From: an uncultured Gammaproteobacteria bacterium
Lineage (GTDB): Bacteria > Patescibacteriota > Microgenomatia > CAZETR01 > Amesbacteraceae
Direction: 5' to 3'
DNA length: 64,000 nucleotides
NCBI GenBank assembly: GCA_964356225.1
Contig: CAYHGA010000001.1
Span: 29,573 to 93,572 of the forward strand
Positions 31,018 through 40,191 of this stretch are shown in pieces. Below the pieces are notes generated by a model, which saw only the letters and a program-made list of their open reading frames with translations, searched no databases and was not told the origin of the DNA. Every line of letters starts with the position of its first letter. Position 1 is the stretch's first letter. Made by a program: the position numbers and the translations under genes.

Positions 31018-33225
31018 TTGTACTGGCAATTGTACCCCAAGACTGCTAATGATGCCAGTGTGTTAAAATTACGTGCTATGGCTGCGGATATAAAGACTAC
31101 TAATAGGATAGTGCCGTTGGATCGGGTGCGGAATATTGGCATAATTGCCCATATCGACGCCGGAAAAACGACGACTACGGAGCGGATTTTGTTTTATACC
31201 GGTAAATCCTACAAGATCGGAGATATTGATGAAGGCGACACGCAAATGGACTGGATGGAACAGGAGCGGGAACGGGGAATTACCATTGTCTCTGCGGCCA
31301 CGACGACGTTTTGGACTGTAAACGACCCGGTTTCCCCTGTCGAGACCGGCTCGTACCGGATTAATATCATTGACACCCCGGGGCATGTGGACTTTACGGC
31401 GGAAGTAGAAAGATCTTTGCGGGTTTTGGACGGAGCAGTGACTGTACTGGATGCAGAAGAAACTGTGCAATCGCAGACGGAAACGGTGTGGCGGCAGGCG
31501 GATAAATATAAAGTGCCGCGGATAATTTTTGTGAATAAGGTGGATAAGCTGGGAGCGAATTTTGAAGGGACAGTAAAAGCCGTTATCGATAGATTGGGGG
31601 CCAACCCGGCAGTGATGGCTTATCCGATCGGAGCTGAAAATACTTTCCGGGGGGTGGTCTTGCTACTGGAAAGAAAAGCTTTGATTTGGCAGGGTGACGA
31701 GACCGGGGCCAAGTTTGTGGAAGAAGAAGTGCCAGCAGATATGAAAGAGGTGGTAGAGAAATGGCGGACTAAACTTATCGAGCAAATTTCAGAAACAGAT
31801 GATGGTCTGTTAAACAAATTTCTGGCAGGAGAAGAGCCGGGTATCGCTGAACTGAAAGCAGCACTACGCCGGGCAACGATTGCTTATAAATTGGTGCCGA
31901 TGTATTCCGGAGCCAGCCTTCGCAACAAGGGAGTACAGCCGCTTTTGGACGCGGTCGTAGAATTTTTGCCGTCACCGGTGGATATTGATCATGTCAAAGG
32001 TTTAAACCCTAAAACCGGGGGAGAAGAAATAAGAAAAACCATTAATGAGGAAAAATTTTGCGGGTTGGCTTTTAAGATCCAGACCGATCCCCACGTGGGC
32101 CGGCTGACGTATTTAAGAATTTATTCGGGTAAATTAGAAGCAGGACAGGGTTTGTATAATGCCTCCAAGGATAAAGAAGAACGGATTTCGCGGATGCTTC
32201 TAATGCACGCTAATAAACGGGAAGAGATTGACGCGGCATACGCGGGAGAGATTGTAGCTTTGGTAGGATTACGGGAAACGAGTACAGGACATACTCTGTG
32301 TGACAAAAGCGCACCAATTATACTCGAGTCTATTACGTTTCCAGAACCAGTTATCTCGCTGGCTATTGAGCCAAAAACCAAACAAGATCAGGAAAAGATG
32401 GGGTTGGCTTTGAATAAATTATCCGATGAAGACCCAACTTTCAGGATTAAATCGAATTTGGAAACCGGGCAAACGATTATTTCGGGCATGGGAGAGCTGC
32501 ACTTGGAAATTATTGTGGACCGGATGAAACGGGAATTTGGAGTAGAGGCCGCCACCGGCGCCCCGCAGGTTGCGTATAAAGAAACTATTAGAAAAACCGC
32601 GGAGGCAGAAGGTAAGTACATTAAACAGTCCGGCGGACATGGCCAGTATGGTCACTGCTGGATTAAACTGGAACCCCTTCCCCGGGGCAGCGGGTTTGAG
32701 TTTGAAAATGACATCAAAGGGGGTGCCATTCCTTCTGAATTTATTCCGGCAATTGAAAAAGGAATTAAAGAGGCTATGGAAAACGGAGTCCTGGCAGGGT
32801 TCCCGGCGGTGGATATTAAAATTTCCCTGTATGACGGGACTTATCACGACGTGGACTCTTCGGAGATGGCGTTTAAGATCGCCGGGTCGATGGCTTTTCA
32901 ACACGGAGTGAAGCTGGCTGATCCATGCTTGCTGGAGCCAATTATGAAAGTGGAAGTGTCTACCCCGGAGGAATATATGGGGGACGTAATCGGCGACTTA
33001 TCCAGCAAGCGGGCACAAATTTTGGGAACGGACAAGCGGGGACACCTAACGATCATCAATGCTTACGTGCCTTTAGCTGAACTTTCTGGATATTCCACCA
33101 AGCTGCGGTCTATGTCTGCCGGCCGGGCCACCTATTATATGGAGCCGTCACACTACGAAGAGGTACCGAAGAATATTGCCGAGAACATCATTGCTAAATC
33201 TGGTAAAGTAGCGGCAAATGCTTAA
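31018..33225 (+). CDS. fusA: Elongation factor G
   Basis: [15 protein letters not shown] domain plus EF-G domains II–V. The probable start is MAADIK near 31078. Confidence 0.93.
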
Positions 33226-33793
33226 GTGGATTGTCATAATTTTGGTTTTAATAGGCGGAATGATATGGCTGGTAAGTGGACAGGGAAGTTTGCCGGGGGA
33301 AATGGTTGTAGATCAGGGGCGGGAACATTGGGAACACGCCAAACTGGATGAGTTTAAGTACAATTCTAATCCCCCGGTTTCCGGGCCCCATGATGTCGAT
33401 TGGATCCGCCCCGGGATTTACGGCGAGGTGCAGGATAAATATAAATTACTGCACTCACTGGAGCATGGATATATCGTCGCCCACTATAATTGTGGGCTCC
33501 AAATTTCTAATTTTCAATTTTTAATTTTTAATGCTAGTGCACATGAAGATAATGGAGTAGCAACGGATAGCGGGACAGTTAAAACTAATTGCGCGCTGGG
33601 GCAGACTTTGGGAGATTTTGCCAAGAAAATGACACTGTTTAAAATAATCGTGGCGCCAAATCCGACAATTGATAAACCCATAATTATGACGGCGTGGGGC
33701 AGAATGCTAAAAATGGACGCTTGGGACGAAAAGCAGGCGGAAAAGTTTGTAAAAGCCTTCCGCAATAAAGGCCCAGAAGCTACAATGGAGTAG
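33218..33793 (+). CDS. DUF3105-family membrane protein
   Basis: N-terminal TM helix, then NPPVSGPHD ... [19 protein letters not shown]. The HxxEHG motif is the DUF3105 signature. Confidence 0.55.
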
Positions 33794-33794
33794 T

Positions 33795-34355
33795 ATGGCT
33801 GAACCGGGGTACAAGTCACTACTTTCCTATAAGCTTGCTCAAATTGCTTTTGATTTGGGATGGGGGTTTGTGCCCCTTTACTACTGTAAATACGAAGACA
33901 ACCGCCAACGCGATCAGATCAAACAGGCTTTACGCTCGTTAAAACAAAACATCGTAGAGGGTTCTTCCGAAAGAAGTCTTTCTACTAAACTAAAGCTTTA
34001 CGATGTAGCCAAAGCCTCAGGCATGGAAGCTCGAGAAGATTTTGAGGATATTCTGCGACGTATGGGGCTATCGCGCTGGAGCAAAGATGATTCCCGACTG
34101 GCTAAAACCCGGAAGATTTTTGAGTCTTCTCCTTCTATTTCCCCCTCACTTCTCCCTATTTCCCTCTGGGTAACCAAGAAGGAAAAAGAAGGAAGAGAGG
34201 GATTAGAGGAAATAGTAAATTATGAACTGGATCTGCTAATCCGCTGTGGATATTTACTAGATCAGCAAATCCGGGCGGTAGAGAAAAAGCACATGGAAGA
34301 GGGCGGATACTCCGAAAAACTACTTAGAAAGCGCTTAGAGTATCGCAGATCGTGA
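33795..34355 (+). CDS. Four-helix-bundle protein (23S rRNA IVS-protein-like), extended C-terminus
   Basis: QNIVEGSSERSLSTKLKLYDVAKASGMEAREDFE resembles the NIAEG...ARGS..E block of TIGR02436-type four-helix-bundle proteins. Confidence 0.4.
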   Translation: MAEPGYKSLLSYKLAQIAFDLGWGFVPLYYCKYEDNRQRDQIKQALRSLKQNIVEGSSERSLSTKLKLYDVAKASGMEAREDFEDILRRMGLSRWSKDDSRLAKTRKIFESSPSISPSLLPISLWVTKKEKEGREGLEEIVNYELDLLIRCGYLLDQQIRAVEKKHMEEGGYSEKLLRKRLEYRRS

Positions 34356-34417
34356 ATAATGGAGTGAATTTCCCCCTTGCGTAGAAAAAAGTTATCGTTT
34401 AGAATTGAGAGCGTCGT

Positions 34418-35596
34418 ATGGCTACATTTGTGAGAAATAAACCACATGTGAATATCGGAACCATTGGTCACGTGGATCACGGGAAGACGACTTTGACGTC
34501 GGCTATTACCATGGTTCTCGCTAAAAAAGGAATGGCCACCGCTAAGAAATATGAGGAAATTGATTCAGCTCCGGAAGAAAAAGCCCGCGGAGTAACTATT
34601 AATCTTTCCCATCAAGAATACGAAACCGAAAAGAGGCATTACGCTCACATTGACGCTCCGGGTCACGCAGACTACATCAAAAATATGATTACGGGGGCCG
34701 CCCAGATGGACGGAGCTATTTTGGTGGTCTCGGCTCCAGACGGACCCATGCCCCAAACCCGGGAGCATATTCTGTTGGCCAAACAGGTAAATGTGCCCGC
34801 AATCGTGGTGTTTTTGAATAAGTGTGACATGGTGGATGATGCAGAACTTCTGGATCTAGTGGAAATGGAAGTCCGGGAACTGTTAACTAAGTACGGATTC
34901 CCCGGCAACGAGGTACCCATAATCCGCGGGTCGGCTCTGAAAGCTACCGAAGGAGATGCCAAGGCAGAGGAAGCAATTTTAGAGTTGATTAAGAAAGTGG
35001 ATGAATATATTCCAGACCCAGTGCGGGAACTAGACAAGCCGTTCTTGATGCCAGTCGAGGACGTCTTTTCTATTAAGGGCCGGGGAACGGTGGTGACGGG
35101 GAGAATTGAGCGCGGAAAGGTGAAGATTAACGAAACGATCGAGATTGTGGGAATCAAGGCTACGCAGACTACGGTGGTTACGGGTGTAGAAATGTTTAGA
35201 AAACAACTGGACGAAGGGTTGGCCGGAGACAACGTGGGTATATTGCTAAGAGGAATTGAAAAAGATCAGGTAGAGAGAGGCCAAGTATTGGCCAAGCCAG
35301 GAACGATTACTCCACATACAGAATTCGATGCCGAAGTATACGTCCTGACTAAAGAAGAGGGGGGAAGGCATACTTCTTTCTTCTCCGGATACCGACCTCA
35401 ATTCTTCATCCGAACCACGGACGTGACGGGTGAAGTAACATTGGCAACCGGAGTGGAAATGGTGATGCCGGGAGACAATGCTAAAGTGAAAGTAAAGCTA
35501 ATTGCTCCAGTAGCTTTGGAAGAGGGACTGCGGTTTGCTATCCGTGAAGGCGGCAAGACCGTGGGAGCAGGCGCGGTGACCAAGATCATCGCTTAA
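34418..35596 (+). CDS. tuf: Elongation factor Tu
   Basis: [15 protein letters not shown]; full-length 392 aa. Confidence 0.95.
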
Positions 35597-35613
35597 TTTT
35601 CAAGCACCTTAAT

Positions 35614-35922
35614 ATGGCAAAAGGAAGACTACGTGTCCGCTTAAAGTCTTTTGACCATCGAGTCATTGACGAAACGGCGGCCAAAATACTAGAAACAGCT
35701 CTGGCTACCGGAGCTAAAGTTTCGGGACCTATTCCTTTGCCGACTGACCGAAAATTAATAGTAGTAACCTCTTCACCTCATGTAGATAAAAATGCCCGGG
35801 AACACTTCGAGATGCTGGTGCACAAAAGATTGATAGATATTCTGGATCCCACCCCTAAGACAATTGAATCTCTCTCCAATTTGGAACTGCCCGCGGGAGT
35901 GGATATTGAGATTAAGATGTAA
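35614..35922 (+). CDS. rpsJ: 30S ribosomal protein S10
   Basis: 102-aa S10. Confidence 0.93.
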
Positions 35923-35925
35923 GTC

Positions 35926-35934
35926 TGGTATAAT
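35926..35934 (+). promoter_or_regulatory. Extended -10 promoter-like element (TGGTATAAT) directly after the rpsJ stop
   Basis: TGnTATAAT read directly from the sequence, about 70 nt upstream of the hairpin/T-tract. Confidence 0.3.
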
Positions 35935-35936
35935 GG

Positions 35937-36572
35937 TTGCACTGTCGTGATTACAGTACGCATACTGCGGTTAACGTAAGTGCGGAAGGGACTTGTTTAT
36001 TGAAGTGCCGTCCGGCACTTTTTTTATTGCACAGCATAGACATGCTAAACACTATATTTGCCAAAAAAAAGGAGATGAGCATGAGGTACACTCCTGACGG
36101 GAGACAGCTAGGCGTGACTGTACTGTCTATATTACCGGCTACTGAAGCCGGTTCACGCACAAAAGAAAAACATGGATATGAGGCGAAACAACTCAAAATT
36201 CAAATGTCAAAATTTAAAACTATAATAAGAGAAGTCCGCGATTCAAAAGAGGCGGACTTTTTAGTTGGGGACGTGGTGCAGGTGAAGGGGATTTCCAAAG
36301 GCAAGGGATGGGCGGGAGCGGTGAAAAGACATGGATTTGCGGGCGGACCGAGAACTCATGGTCAATCAGATAGAGAAAGGGCGCCAGGATCAAGTGGACA
36401 AACTACAACTCCGGGACGGGTGCTGCGGGGAAAAAGAATGGCAGGACGGATGGGGGGAGAAACCGTGACGGTAAAGGGGTTGAAGATTCTGGATATTAAC
36501 GAAAAAGAGATGGCGGTTATTGGCGCAGTCCCCGGACACCGGGGATCTTTTGTAACTGTTTCAAAAATATGA
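35937..36572 (+). CDS. rplC: 50S ribosomal protein L3
   Basis: L3 sequence. The true start is probably MLNTIFAKK at about 36042, downstream of the hairpin. Confidence 0.9.
36003..36026 (+). terminator. Intrinsic-terminator-like hairpin plus T7 tract between rpsJ and rplC
   Basis: AGTGCC-GTCC-GGCACT followed by TTTTTTT, about 15 nt upstream of the rplC ATG. Confidence 0.5.
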
Positions 36573-37183
36573 TTTCAGCAATAACTTATAACTTGAAGGG
36601 AGAAAAAGTCGAGTCAACTCCCCTGCCCGGCTCCATTTTTGAAATTAAAGTCGAGCCGGCACTGCTAGCACAGGCGGTGCGGGTGTGGCTATCTAACCAG
36701 CGGCGGGCCGGAGCGTCTACAAAAACCAGGAGTGAAGTCGCTAAGACTACGGCTAAGCCGTATAAACAAAAAGGCACGGGTAGAGCGAGACATGGCAGCT
36801 CGGCCGCCCCGATATTTGTGGGCGGGGGAATTGCTCATGGACCAAGCGGGGAACAAAACTACAAAATGACAATGCCGGCTAAAATGAGGAGACTGGCTCT
36901 GCTGGGGGCTTTGTCGGCAAAAGCTGAGGCTAAACAAATTATGGTAGTTACTGGAGCCGAGAAGGCCAGCGGAAAAACAAAGCAAGTGAGTTGGCTGGCA
37001 GATGGAAGGTGTCTAGTGGTAACCGCCAGCGGCCAAGATAAATTCAAACAAGCCACGCGGAATTTAAATGCCGCTCAATTAAGCGGCGTGAGCAGCTTGT
37101 CTGCCTACACGGTGCTAGCTCACAAACGGCTGATATTAACCAAGGAAACGTTAGCTGAAATTAAAAAAACATATGCTGCTTAA
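36569..37183 (+). CDS. rplD: 50S ribosomal protein L4
   Basis: L4 family sequence; overlaps rplC by 4 nt. Confidence 0.92.
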   Translation: MISAITYNLKGEKVESTPLPGSIFEIKVEPALLAQAVRVWLSNQRRAGASTKTRSEVAKTTAKPYKQKGTGRARHGSSAAPIFVGGGIAHGPSGEQNYKMTMPAKMRRLALLGALSAKAEAKQIMVVTGAEKASGKTKQVSWLADGRCLVVTASGQDKFKQATRNLNAAQLSGVSSLSAYTVLAHKRLILTKETLAEIKKTYAA

Positions 37184-37448
37184 AGCCGTGGTCACTGAAA
37201 AATCTATGAGAGAGGCCCAAAATAAAAGGTACACTTTTGCGGTGACTCCGGAGGCAACTAAGCCGAAAATAAGAAAGGCGGTAGAGGAAATGTTTGGGGT
37301 GGAAGTGCTAAGAGTGCAAACTCTGATTATGCCCGGTAAGTCCCGGCGCAGCCGACGGATGGGTGGAGAAACCACGGCTCCGGACTGGAAAAAAGCGATA
37401 GTACATATTAATTCTAAACAGAGCATTGACCTATGGAAAAAAGATTAA
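37173..37448 (+). CDS. rplW: 50S ribosomal protein L23
   Basis: 91-aa L23. Confidence 0.92.
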   Translation: MLLKAVVTEKSMREAQNKRYTFAVTPEATKPKIRKAVEEMFGVEVLRVQTLIMPGKSRRSRRMGGETTAPDWKKAIVHINSKQSIDLWKKD

Positions 37449-38173
37449 CTTGGACTTTACCTAAAAACTCCGGCCGGAATTCTACCGGGGTGGTGACTAC
37501 CCGGCATCAGGGAGCCAGAGAAAAGAGACGCTACCGGGATATTGATTGGAAACGGGATAAGCGGGATGTGCCGGGACGAGTGGTGGCTATCGAGTACGAT
37601 CCAAACCGCACGGCTGATGTGGCTTTGATCCAATACGCGGACGGGGCCAGAAAATATATCCTGGCACCGGATGGAATGAAAGCGGGACAACGGGTAGTGA
37701 GCGGAGAAGCCGCCCCACTGACTGCGGGAAACGCTTTGCCCTTGAAAGCAATTCCGGTGGGCACAATGATACACTGTCTAGAGGTAACGGTTGGCCGAGG
37801 GGCAAAACTAGTGCGCGGGGCTGGAGGAGCAGCGGTAATTCAGGGTTTCGAAGAAGGGTGGGCTCTGGTAAAATTGCCATCGGGCGAAATCCGACGCATA
37901 AGGCCCGAAGCGTATGCCACAATTGGGCAAATCGGTAATTTAGTCTGGAAGAATGTAAATCTGGGCACGGCGGGAAGAAAGAGGCATATGGGAATCCGGC
38001 CAACTGTCCGGGGAACGGCACAAAATCCCAGGTCCCATCCTCACGGCGGCGGAGAGGGTCGGTCTGGAGAGGGAATGCATCCCAAGACGCCGTGGGGTAG
38101 ATCAGCCAGAGGGAATAGGACCAGAAATAAATTTAAATATTCGCACAAGATGGTTGTGCAAAGACGCAAATGA
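37433..38173 (+). CDS. rplB: 50S ribosomal protein L2
   Basis: L2 with the conserved C-terminal GGGEG...HP region. Confidence 0.94.
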
Positions 38174-38424
38174 AGGCACCATATATTGATCAGAAATTAA
38201 TGGCCAAGGTGGGTAAAAAAATGAATCCCATCAAGACCTGGGCTAGAAATAGCCAGATACCTCCGGAGTTTGTGGGGACGACTTTTCAGGTGCACGACGG
38301 CCATAAATTTGTGGACGTATTTATCAATGAGTCGATGGTGGGACACCGTTTGGGGGAGTTCTCTCCAACCCGAACATTTAGGGGCCATGGAGCAATAGTT
38401 AAGAGAACCATGGAGAAAACATGA
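38170..38424 (+). CDS. rpsS: 30S ribosomal protein S19
   Basis: 84-aa S19. Confidence 0.93.
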
Positions 38425-38780
38425 CGACGGTTAAAGCCAAAGCCAGTTTTATCATGTCCAGTCCACGCAAGTTGCGGCTGGTAGCAGACGCAGTCCGGGG
38501 TTTGTCTCCAAAGACCGCTATCGATCAACTAAAAATGCTTCCTAAAAGAGCCGCCGGAGTATTGCTGTCCGTTTTTGAGCAAGCGATGGGCAATGCAAAA
38601 AATAATTTCAAATTGTCCCCAGAAAATTTGAGAATTAAATCGCTATCGATTAACGATGGGCCGCGGGGGCCAAAACGAATGGACCGGTCTCACGGAGCCA
38701 GATTTGATAGAGGTGTGAAAAGACGAAAGTATGCACATGTTAGTTTAGAGCTGGAGGAAAAAACCGCAGATGGGAAATAA
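38421..38780 (+). CDS. rplV: 50S ribosomal protein L22
   Basis: L22 family. Confidence 0.92.
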
Positions 38781-39429
38781 AGTTAACCCGGTAGGATACC
38801 GGCTACCACTGTCCCCGACTGCAACCTGGAAATCCAGGTGGTTTACTACCAACCCCAAAAAATACCGGGGGTATTTGGCTACGGATGTTAAATTAAGAAA
38901 AGCGCTGATGGAAAAACTTAAAGTGGCCGGAGCAACAAGAGTGAATATTGAAAGATCGCTGAAAAACATGAAGGTGGTGATCTATGTAACCCGCCCGGGG
39001 GTGGTGATTGGGCGGGGGGGGGCGGGAATCGACGAGCTGAAAAAATTCATTTCCAAGACTTTAGGCCGCCAAGATCTAAAAGTGGAACAGCCGCAAATTG
39101 AGGAAGTAAAAATGCCGGACTTGAATGCGCACCTGGTAGCGTCTAAAATTGCCGAGCAAATTGAGCGCAGATTGCCAGCCCGGCGGGTAGCTAAAAAATC
39201 TATCGAACGGACCATGCAGGCGGGAGCAAAAGGCATAAAAGTATTGATTGCCGGCAGAATTAACGGGGCGGAAATTTCCCGACGGGAGCTGTATCACGAA
39301 GGATCGGTGCCGCTACAGACCTTGAGAGCGGATATTGATTACGCCCAAGTACCGGCACTGACCCGCTCCGGATACGTGGGAGTTAAAGTGTGGATTAATC
39401 GAGGAGAAACAAACTATGCTACAACCTAA
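38770..39429 (+). CDS. rpsC: 30S ribosomal protein S3
   Basis: KH domain plus the S3 C-terminal domain. Confidence 0.93.
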
Positions 39430-39826
39430 AAAACAAAAATACCGAAAACAGTTCCGGGGCCATATGAATGGGTCGGCCAGCCGGGGCAACGCTTTGAGTT
39501 TCGGAGAATACGGCATGAAAGCTATAAGCCGGGGGTGGTTATCAGCAAAGCAAATTGAAGCTGCCAGAAAAGCCATTACTCATTATTCCCAAAGAGGGGG
39601 TAAAGTATGGATTCGGGTTTTTCCAGATAAACCGATTACTAAGAAAGCTCTGGGGACAAGAATGGGTTCTGGTAAGGGGGACATTGTCGATTATGTAGCG
39701 GTAATCACTCCGGGCAGAATTATTTTTGAAATCGCCGGAGTAAGTGAAGATGTAGCCCGAACGGCGTTTGCTAGAGCGATAGCCAAATTACCGTTTAAAT
39801 TCAGGATAATTTCTAAAAATGATTAA
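39416..39826 (+). CDS. rplP: 50S ribosomal protein L16
   Basis: L16 family. Confidence 0.93.
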
Positions 39827-39986
39827 ATTTAAATCCCAAGTTAAAATATTGAATCCTGAGGAGCTGGCGGTCAAGATCAGGGAGCTGGTGACTCAGATCG
39901 CCAGAGCCAGGGTGGAAAAGAAACCGACCCATAAACTGCTTAAACAGTTAGCTATTGTAAAAACATATGCGCGTAATAACCGGTAA
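39819..39986 (+). CDS. rpmC: 50S ribosomal protein L29 (55 aa, below the ORF-track length cutoff)
   Basis: Hand translation gives [55 protein letters not shown]. The ATG overlaps the L16 stop and the stop overlaps the rpsQ start. Confidence 0.8.
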
Positions 39987-40191
39987 AGTCATCTCGGACA
40001 AAATGAATAAAACTGTAGTGGTAGAGGCGGGGCGGTTGGCTGTTCATCCTAAATATCATAAACGGATAAAAAGAACGCAAAAGTTTCATGCCCACAACGA
40101 GCTGGGGGTAAAAGTGGGAGATGTGGTAAAGATTGTAGAGGTTAAGCCGGTTTCGGCAACTAAATCCTGGAAAGTGACTGAAAAAATATGA
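39967..40191 (+). CDS. rpsQ: 30S ribosomal protein S17
   Basis: 74-aa S17. Confidence 0.93.

Follow-up and report, generated by a model that had tools for sequence, protein, structure and literature searches.

The spacer of 119 nt (about 120 nt) that separates rpsJ from rplC in the 64,000-nt stretch of DNA analysed here (the window) contains both a promoter-like sequence and a hairpin followed by a run of T, placed between two ribosomal-protein genes. This raises the question of whether the spacer carries a regulatory element, which of the two genes such an element would serve, and how it would work. The coordinates of the features discussed below are collected in Table 1.

Table 1 Features of the rpsJ-rplC region of the window, and inserts between rpsJ and the leader promoter in related loci
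Feature	Position	Strand	Remarks
fusA	31018-33225		
tuf	34418-35596		
rpsJ (S10)	35614-35922	+	stop TAA 35920-22; S10 Pfam PF00338 found on the homologous upstream gene in L162, L169, L170, L173
Predicted sigma-70-type promoter	35906..35934	+	-35 TTGAGA 35906-11; 17-nt spacer; extended -10 TGgTATAAT 35926-34
Leader RNA core (covariance model R1 match)	35939..36025	+	87.1 bits, E 1e-19
P1 hairpin	35941..35957	+	ACUGU (35941-45) : ACAGU (35953-57)
P2, candidate sensor/operator	35959..35984	+	two-helix irregular hairpin, about 26 nt
Candidate antiterminator strand GGAaGGgACUU	35984..35994	+	predicted to pair with 36003-36013 (terminator 5' arm and loop)
Intrinsic-terminator-like hairpin AAGUGCC-GUCC-GGCACUU	36003-36020	+	followed by U7, 36019-36025
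Short A/U-rich spacer from U-tract to rplC ATG	36026..36041	+	16 nt, without Shine-Dalgarno; 0-16 nt in relatives
rplC (L3, 176 aa)	36042..36572	+	ATG 36042; followed by rplD, rplW, rplB, rpsS and so on
Insert in L002	1876-2860		
Insert in L003	2279-2780		
Insert in L082	1971-2290		
Insert in L175	614-817		

Promoter-like and terminator-like sequences between rpsJ and rplC

Promoters and terminators were scanned for with a sigma-70 consensus and with E. coli-style terminators, whose function in a bacterium of the candidate phyla radiation (CPR) is assumed. The initial annotation had placed an extended -10 straight after the rpsJ stop, and this was found (TGGTATAAT, 35926-35934) together with a -35, TTGAGA, that lies within the final rpsJ codons. 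With a score of 11/12 plus the TG, it was the top of the 25 promoter-like sites returned by the consensus scan of the 16 kb between 30000 and 46000, and transcription is predicted to start near 35939-35942, about 7 nt past the -10. The hairpin and T7 run that had been noted about 15 nt before rplC was also present (36003-36025, 16 nt from the ATG), with a stem of 7 bp, four of them G-C pairs, a loop of 4 nt and a folding energy of -9.5 kcal/mol; the count of seven takes in the U that closes GGCACU. At the sequence level this is the form of an intrinsic terminator, a G+C-rich stem-loop directly before a U-tract, and we infer that the promoter is used and that transcription can terminate at the U7 tract. 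Neither kind of site is enriched between 30000 and 46000 (25 promoter-like sites compared to 19.2 ± 4.4 expected from shuffles, and 21 terminator-like sites compared to 19.5 ± 4.4), and the fold of the spacer, judged from the window sequence alone, has a z of -1.74. Taken by itself, the window sequence makes a weak case, and it is conservation among the related sequences compared below that sets the unit apart from chance.

The gap between tuf and rpsJ is only 17 nt. S10 appears to be co-transcribed with tuf in the Amesbacteria lineage, and rplC appears to be the head of its own transcription unit, which makes the earlier description of the element as lying inside the S10 operon misleading. 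A separation of S10 from the rplC-led operon is an arrangement described for archaea and some cyanobacteria. Further upstream, two ORFs between fusA and tuf (33218-34355) break the usually tight str operon in the window; one encodes a DUF3105 protein (PF11303, E 3e-25) and the other a protein of the four-helix-bundle kind that is similar to the '23S rRNA intervening sequence protein' (PF05635), with a score of 29.6 bits against a cut-off of 33.8.

The product of rplC was identified as L3 from the PF00297 match of P0001, a 100% identical protein. Public gene calls put the L3 start at 36081 (163 aa), behind AAGGAG, a Shine-Dalgarno-like motif that is formed by codons K-E; the conserved N-terminus MLNTIFAKK and the lack of a Shine-Dalgarno at the 36081 position in the relative L001 support a start at 36042 instead. 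The L3 of Amesbacteria is short, at 176 aa compared to about 205 elsewhere. Most genes of the ribosomal cluster (window 34388-40000), including rpsJ, rplC, rplD, rplW and rplB, have no recognisable Shine-Dalgarno, and GGAG-like motifs were seen at rpsC, rplP and rplV only. Within the 16 nt that follow the U-tract there is no other promoter for rplC and the ~25 essential genes downstream, so that read-through of the terminator must occur, and this read-through is probably controlled.

The unit is conserved and stays with rplC

Scans of genomes and metagenomes, together with look-ups of homologous L3 proteins, yielded relatives from Candidatus Amesbacteria and close metagenome contigs; by L3, the closest genomes are those of Candidatus Amesbacteria (Microgenomates, CPR), at 80-81% identity. 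The promoter-leader-terminator unit was found in 13 distinct versions, all before rplC, so that the conservation in relatives named as a check by the initial annotation is borne out for the hairpin and for the unit around it. Each version has an extended -10, equivalent to that of the window and at the same distance; the leader measures about 85 nt, and its hairpin and U-tract stand 0-16 nt ahead of the rplC ATG. The exception in spacing is L082, where the distance from the U-tract to the ATG is 115 nt due to an insertion. This insert of ~90 nt (2410-2500) is MITE-like, with the terminal inverted repeats GTATCACCCCC ... GGGTGATAC. Between relatives and window, leader identity amounts to 80-90%, as compared with 45-66% at third positions of rplC and 53-75% at third positions of rpsJ, and this excess of identity over the third positions of both neighbouring genes indicates that the leader is under purifying selection.

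In L001, L163 and L165-L168, rpsJ is absent upstream and the conserved block starts exactly at the -35, TTGATT, of a promoter that reads TTGATT-17-TGgTATAAT. The upstream contexts in these loci are of three kinds, DUF5615, DUF433 and an rve transposase. Since the unit stays with rplC where rpsJ is not upstream, it belongs, on this comparison of loci, to rplC and not to rpsJ. The genes that neighbour the detached rplC operon in several Amesbacteria are toxin-antitoxin-like in the case of DUF433 and DUF5615, and the transposase is of the rve family.

Other loci have unrelated ORFs inserted past the true rpsJ stop, and here the final 40, 21 or 17 nt of rpsJ, including the -35, occur once more beside the -10 (L002/L081, L003/L107 and L082). 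Such direct repeats of the last 17-40 nt of rpsJ flank the inserts in three lineages. The ORFs inserted between rpsJ and the leader promoter, of 291, 106, 75 and 67 aa, represent independent insertions, and no Pfam match was found for any of the four (L002, L003, L082 and L175). From these sequences, the rpsJ-leader junction looks like an insertion hot spot that spares the promoter.

Structure of the leader RNA

A covariance model, R1, was built from ten leaders. It has a single match in the 64-kb window and matches 12 other distinct loci, always just upstream of rplC, recovering all 13 distinct members with E of 1e-25 to 2e-5; neither the window nor 68 loci, which had been gathered through L3, yielded a second copy or an unlinked one. 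In the R1 alignment, 92% of cells are paired as compared with 22-52% in slid controls, and double changes are seen at 7 pairs as compared with 2.1 in shuffles (0/500 shuffles reach 7), statistics that are supportive rather than probabilistic, given the relatedness of the sequences and an alignment that was fitted to R1 and leans towards structure. The 13 leaders stem from few closely related lineages, and most pairs never vary. An alignment of the 13 leaders with MAFFT misplaced the insertion-bearing members, and the model-based alignment misaligns L174, with the result that its pair counts slightly understate P2 and overstate P1.

P1 is weak and variable, and its value of 84% of cells paired (helix 1) is partly alignment-dependent. 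In P2 (helix 2), 96.5% are paired, with compensatory changes at two pairs, and P2 is the minimum free energy (MFE) fold in 7/7 sequence variants. It is made up of an outer helix, CGCAU (35959-63) with GUGCG (35980-84), an asymmetric internal loop, A35964 and C35965 opposite A35979, and an inner helix, UGCG (35966-69) with CGUA (35975-78), which opens with a U-A and a G.U pair and carries the loop GUUAA. The internal loop is fixed in all variants, and the 3' strand of P2 with its flank, UAAGUGCGGAnGG, is invariant in 13 sequences. The inner helix has 4 bp in the main form, 5 in L173, 9 in L175, 9 in L177 and at least 12 in L174, and its sequences differ. A small hairpin, CGCA-uac-UGCG, was considered for this region and was replaced by the two-helix P2, the sole explanation of the insertions in L173, L174, L175 and L177. 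A leader peptide was also considered and rejected; the 10-codon GUG ORF of the window leader has another frame and sequence in L001 and is not conserved.

The rplC cassettes of Microgenomates-like loci fall into several sequence types, and the terminator hairpin is kept in leaders of both type C and type D. Its stem has a compensatory change from U-A to C-G in L174 and G.U variants in L002, L163, L175 and L177. We take the element, with high confidence, to be a conserved cis-regulatory leader of rplC.

A candidate antiterminator

An upstream near-repeat of the terminator had been noted initially, and both members are there (AAGTGCGGAAGGGAC at 35978-92 and AAGTGCCGTCCGGCAC at 36003-18). The alternative pairing proposed for them was followed up by RNA structure prediction, the check that had been suggested, and held in part. 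In the MFE fold of the spacer the near-repeat is indeed paired with the terminator region, and AAGUGC of its upstream member is complementary to GCACUU of the terminator 3' arm. This is not a clean antiterminator: the AAGUGC:GCACUU pairing extends the antiterminator described below into a long hairpin that still abuts the U-tract, and it cannot alone prevent termination because the long hairpin ends at that same tract. Its basal helix is not conserved in type D, and the pairing was rejected in this role.

A better candidate, from structure prediction, is the strand with the consensus GGAnGG(C/U/G)(A/G) that lies directly 3' of P2 and has G35984 in common with it. The hairpin that it would form has a predicted energy of -10.4 kcal/mol in the window, which is reached by 6/500 linker shuffles. 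Among type C and D sequences, 15/15 are predicted to have this architecture, and energies of about -6 to -10 kcal/mol for the antiterminator compare with -7.5 to -12 kcal/mol for the terminator. In every case the antiterminator is more stable than in shuffled linkers, by a modest z of -0.9 to -3.3, and in most relatives it forms in folds of a transcript that ends before the terminator 3' arm. The terminator fold is the plain MFE, with no factor, in several to most relatives.

Sequence changes in the antiterminator strand are pairing-compatible (C/U opposite G, A/G opposite U) and come from few independent events. In L174, where the terminator 5' arm has C for U, a matching G is found on both the 3' arm and the antiterminator strand (GGCA to GGUGC), and L003, of type D, has GGU:ACC in place of the GGA:UCC of type C. 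Type D leaders offer this strand a further pairing partner, an upstream GCCAAC, which is plausibly an anti-antiterminator. From these predictions and changes we infer, with moderate support, a terminator/antiterminator switch. Three more distant Microgenomates-like loci (L104 771-838, L098 783-844 and L121 2053-2132) have a GGACGGC strand upstream of a different terminator, AAGCCCC...GGGGCUU; this strand can also pair with an upstream GCCG, in an anti-antiterminator-like manner.

Analogous cassettes in other lineages

Most of the Microgenomates-like loci sampled have an analogous cassette before rplC, in which cTTGCG-N17-TGnTATAAT is followed by a 65-110 nt leader and then by a GC hairpin plus U-run. 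An automatic count found a terminator-like hairpin in 17/19 loci with L3 at least 55% identical to that of the window, and a TGn extended -10 upstream in 15/17, numbers that are lower bounds since automated terminator surveys miss several hairpins visible by eye. The two-helix plan of P2, with a bulged A in UA-A-GU, seems to be common to several types, and in type A an upstream strand covaries with the terminator region. The type A leaders (L004, L008, L015, L084, L087 and L097) have a conserved GUUUAAUG straight after the terminator, followed by about 50 extra nt to the rplC AUG; in L015 this extra stretch reads as a 15-codon uORF with a stop that overlaps the rplC start (AUGA).

The window leader might be the first example of a class of rplC leaders that extends throughout the Microgenomates, with a sensor that binds L3 or a non-ribosomal ligand, and not L4. 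This extension is tentative and, in our judgement, unlikely to hold; we know of no case in which L3 has been shown to be an autogenous repressor in bacteria. If it were true, a single RNA switch, with its promoter in the end of rpsJ, would stand over about 25 ribosomal-protein genes in these reduced genomes.

Conserved hairpins with a U-run were also seen in rpsJ-rplC spacers of Flavobacteriia (L010, L012, L022, L023, L033, L043, L048, L059, L062, L067 and L075), with CAGGGTTGAAG...GACCCTG-T7 and TTTCAAGCATTGG...CGATGCTTGAAA as examples. They have no Rfam match and may be another undescribed leader or terminator at the rpsJ-rplC junction.

Proposed mechanism and alternative explanations

The reading that we prefer, at a probability of roughly 55%, is that the element is an attenuator leader of the rplC-led operon under feedback by a ribosomal protein, most likely L4 or L3. 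Of the two roles suggested in the initial annotation, an attenuator or ribosomal-protein-responsive leader fits better than a small RNA, as the architecture is conserved, is under purifying selection and travels with rplC. A strong promoter with its -35 in the last rpsJ codons would start a leader of ~85 nt that folds into P1 and P2. During transcription, the G-rich strand would capture the terminator loop and 5' half, and RNA polymerase would read into rplC; if the antiterminator were prevented, the compact hairpin and U7 would form and transcription would stop 16 nt before the ATG. On read-through transcripts the same hairpin would probably also hinder ribosome loading, and an effect of the terminator fold on translation initiation is probable because the hairpin and U-tract lie 0-16 nt from an ATG that has no Shine-Dalgarno.

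The agent would be a surplus ribosomal protein encoded downstream, either L4, by precedent, or L3, the product of the nearest gene. Bound to P2 and its 3' flank, such a protein would favour termination in an autogenous feedback, and the P2 internal loop (A35964, C35965 and A35979) and GCGGAAGG are candidate points of contact. How a protein on P2 would block the antiterminator is not obvious, because the two overlap by only one nucleotide. The classic signature of rRNA mimicry is missing when the leader is compared with E. coli 23S rRNA. Resemblance to the rRNA binding site is common among ribosomal-protein leaders but is not a requirement. Smith-Waterman scores of nine leaders against the E. 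coli 23S were within those of shuffles, and R1 gave no match in an E. coli rrn operon (best 8.5 bits); mimicry is retained as a possible lead. Two sites of the E. coli 23S were considered as its object and lent it no support: several leaders align near 1204-1265, a region that does not have the leader's structure in common, and at 2738-2744 (UAAGUGC) the hairpin is differently connected and the 7-mer is not significant.

The element could also be constitutive and unregulated. Its hairpin would then terminate leakily, lowering the transcription that comes from tuf-rpsJ and from the strong local promoter and thereby fixing the ratio of S10/EF-Tu to the downstream products, and the leader structure would serve only RNA stability or processing. 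We hold this to be improbable. It is in keeping with the terminator-like hairpin between rpsJ and rplC in the unrelated Flavobacteriia, with the terminator as MFE in most relatives without any factor, and with the lack of rRNA mimicry against E. coli 23S, but it leaves unexplained why the P2 internal loop and UAAGUGCGGAnGG are invariant while the inner helix and linker vary, why a near-isoenergetic alternative pairing is found in 15/15 sequences, or why the terminator is kept where rpsJ is not upstream.

A riboswitch-like attenuator with another kind of ligand, such as an alarmone or other small molecule, an ion, or an RNA-binding protein that is not ribosomal, is a poor prospect. Against it, the sensor is small, a single irregular hairpin of about 26 nt, rplC is the only genomic context, and no known riboswitch class matches, even though the order of sensor helix, antiterminator and terminator is that of transcriptional riboswitches and no rRNA mimicry was detected (E. 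coli 23S). Small irregular hairpins are typical of protein sites and not of metabolite pockets.

It is very unlikely that the spacer holds an independent small RNA gene of ~85 nt that acts in trans from its own promoter and terminator. The cassette is complete from promoter to terminator and its structure is conserved, as such a gene would have it, but it is always found close ahead of rplC, 0-16 nt from the ATG, the single 115-nt exception being caused by an insertion; it lacks a second or unlinked copy in the window or in the 68 loci, themselves collected through L3; and it would leave the essential downstream genes without another promoter. That consensus-like motifs came together by chance in an AT-rich spacer, as the unenriched scans and the modest z of the spacer fold might suggest, is barely credible in view of conservation far above neutral, model E-values of 1e-19 and better, and compensatory changes.

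Comparison with known systems

Bacteria of the candidate phyla radiation are not amenable to pure culture, their genomes encode few regulators, and to our knowledge almost nothing is known of their gene regulation. The rplC leader offers a concrete and cheaply testable candidate regulatory RNA for this group, placed before the largest ribosomal-protein operon. It would put the control point of the S10 operon after rpsJ in the Amesbacteria lineage, the same position as in archaea, and Rfam-based annotation gains a family that it currently misses. With Rfam 15, no match was obtained in the window at gathering score, a permissive scan of 35850-36120 gave only noise (E 7.8), and a scan of 20 related loci gave no match; ARAGORN detected neither tRNA nor tmRNA genes. 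No account of a leader between rpsJ and rplC turned up in full-text searches of the literature. The 'rpsJ motif' of 2024 lies upstream of rpsJ, in Peptostreptococcaceae, and the 2020 survey of ribosomal leaders has a leader upstream of rplC only for Archaeoglobi and none for CPR (PMC7247131).

The E. coli S10 leader acts through L4, by termination that is stimulated by NusA and by translational repression (PMC3616713). The rplC leader is like it in preceding the same gene set (rplC, rplD, rplW, rplB and others), in carrying a terminator hairpin with its U-run just before the first gene under control, and in the conservation of the terminator hairpin sequence itself, and dual transcriptional and translational control is plausible in both. 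The E. coli leader, however, lies upstream of rpsJ, has ~170 nt and five hairpins (HA-HE/HG), and is confined to Gammaproteobacteria (PMC3616713), whereas the rplC leader lies after rpsJ and has ~85 nt and three hairpins. A search with R1, filters off, of the E. coli S10 leader strand of L180 gave no match, and Rfam 15 has no model for that leader. The L4 r-leader candidate of Archaeoglobi is closer in position, standing directly upstream of rplC-rplD-rplW-rplB with S10 outside that operon (Eckert & Weinberg 2020, PMC7247131); it is archaeal and a different motif, while the rplC leader has a bacterial-type promoter and a putative intrinsic terminator.

In its proposed logic the rplC leader is the same as the infC-rpmI-rplT leader of B. 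subtilis, where transcription attenuation depends on L20 and L20 binding prevents the antiterminator (PMC1865079). Like the infC leader (PMC1865079), the rplC leader combines an irregular helix that is conserved with a neighbouring strand that would compete for the terminator 5' half, and the two folds are close in energy; in both leaders the protein would favour the terminator. The operon and the protein are others, and there is no homology of sequence or structure. The infC leader has ~200 nt, a demonstrated binding of L20 and a mimicry of 23S H40/41 (PMC1865079), as against no mimicry of the E. coli 23S found and an operator-antiterminator overlap of 1 nt for the rplC leader. What the rplC leader shares with ribosomal-protein leaders in general is a conserved, structured 5' UTR that immediately precedes ribosomal-protein genes, and what it shares with attenuators, by prediction, is a mutually exclusive pairing that sequesters the terminator 5' arm. 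On this comparison, the rplC leader stands outside any described family and appears to work in the manner of a ribosomal-protein attenuator leader.
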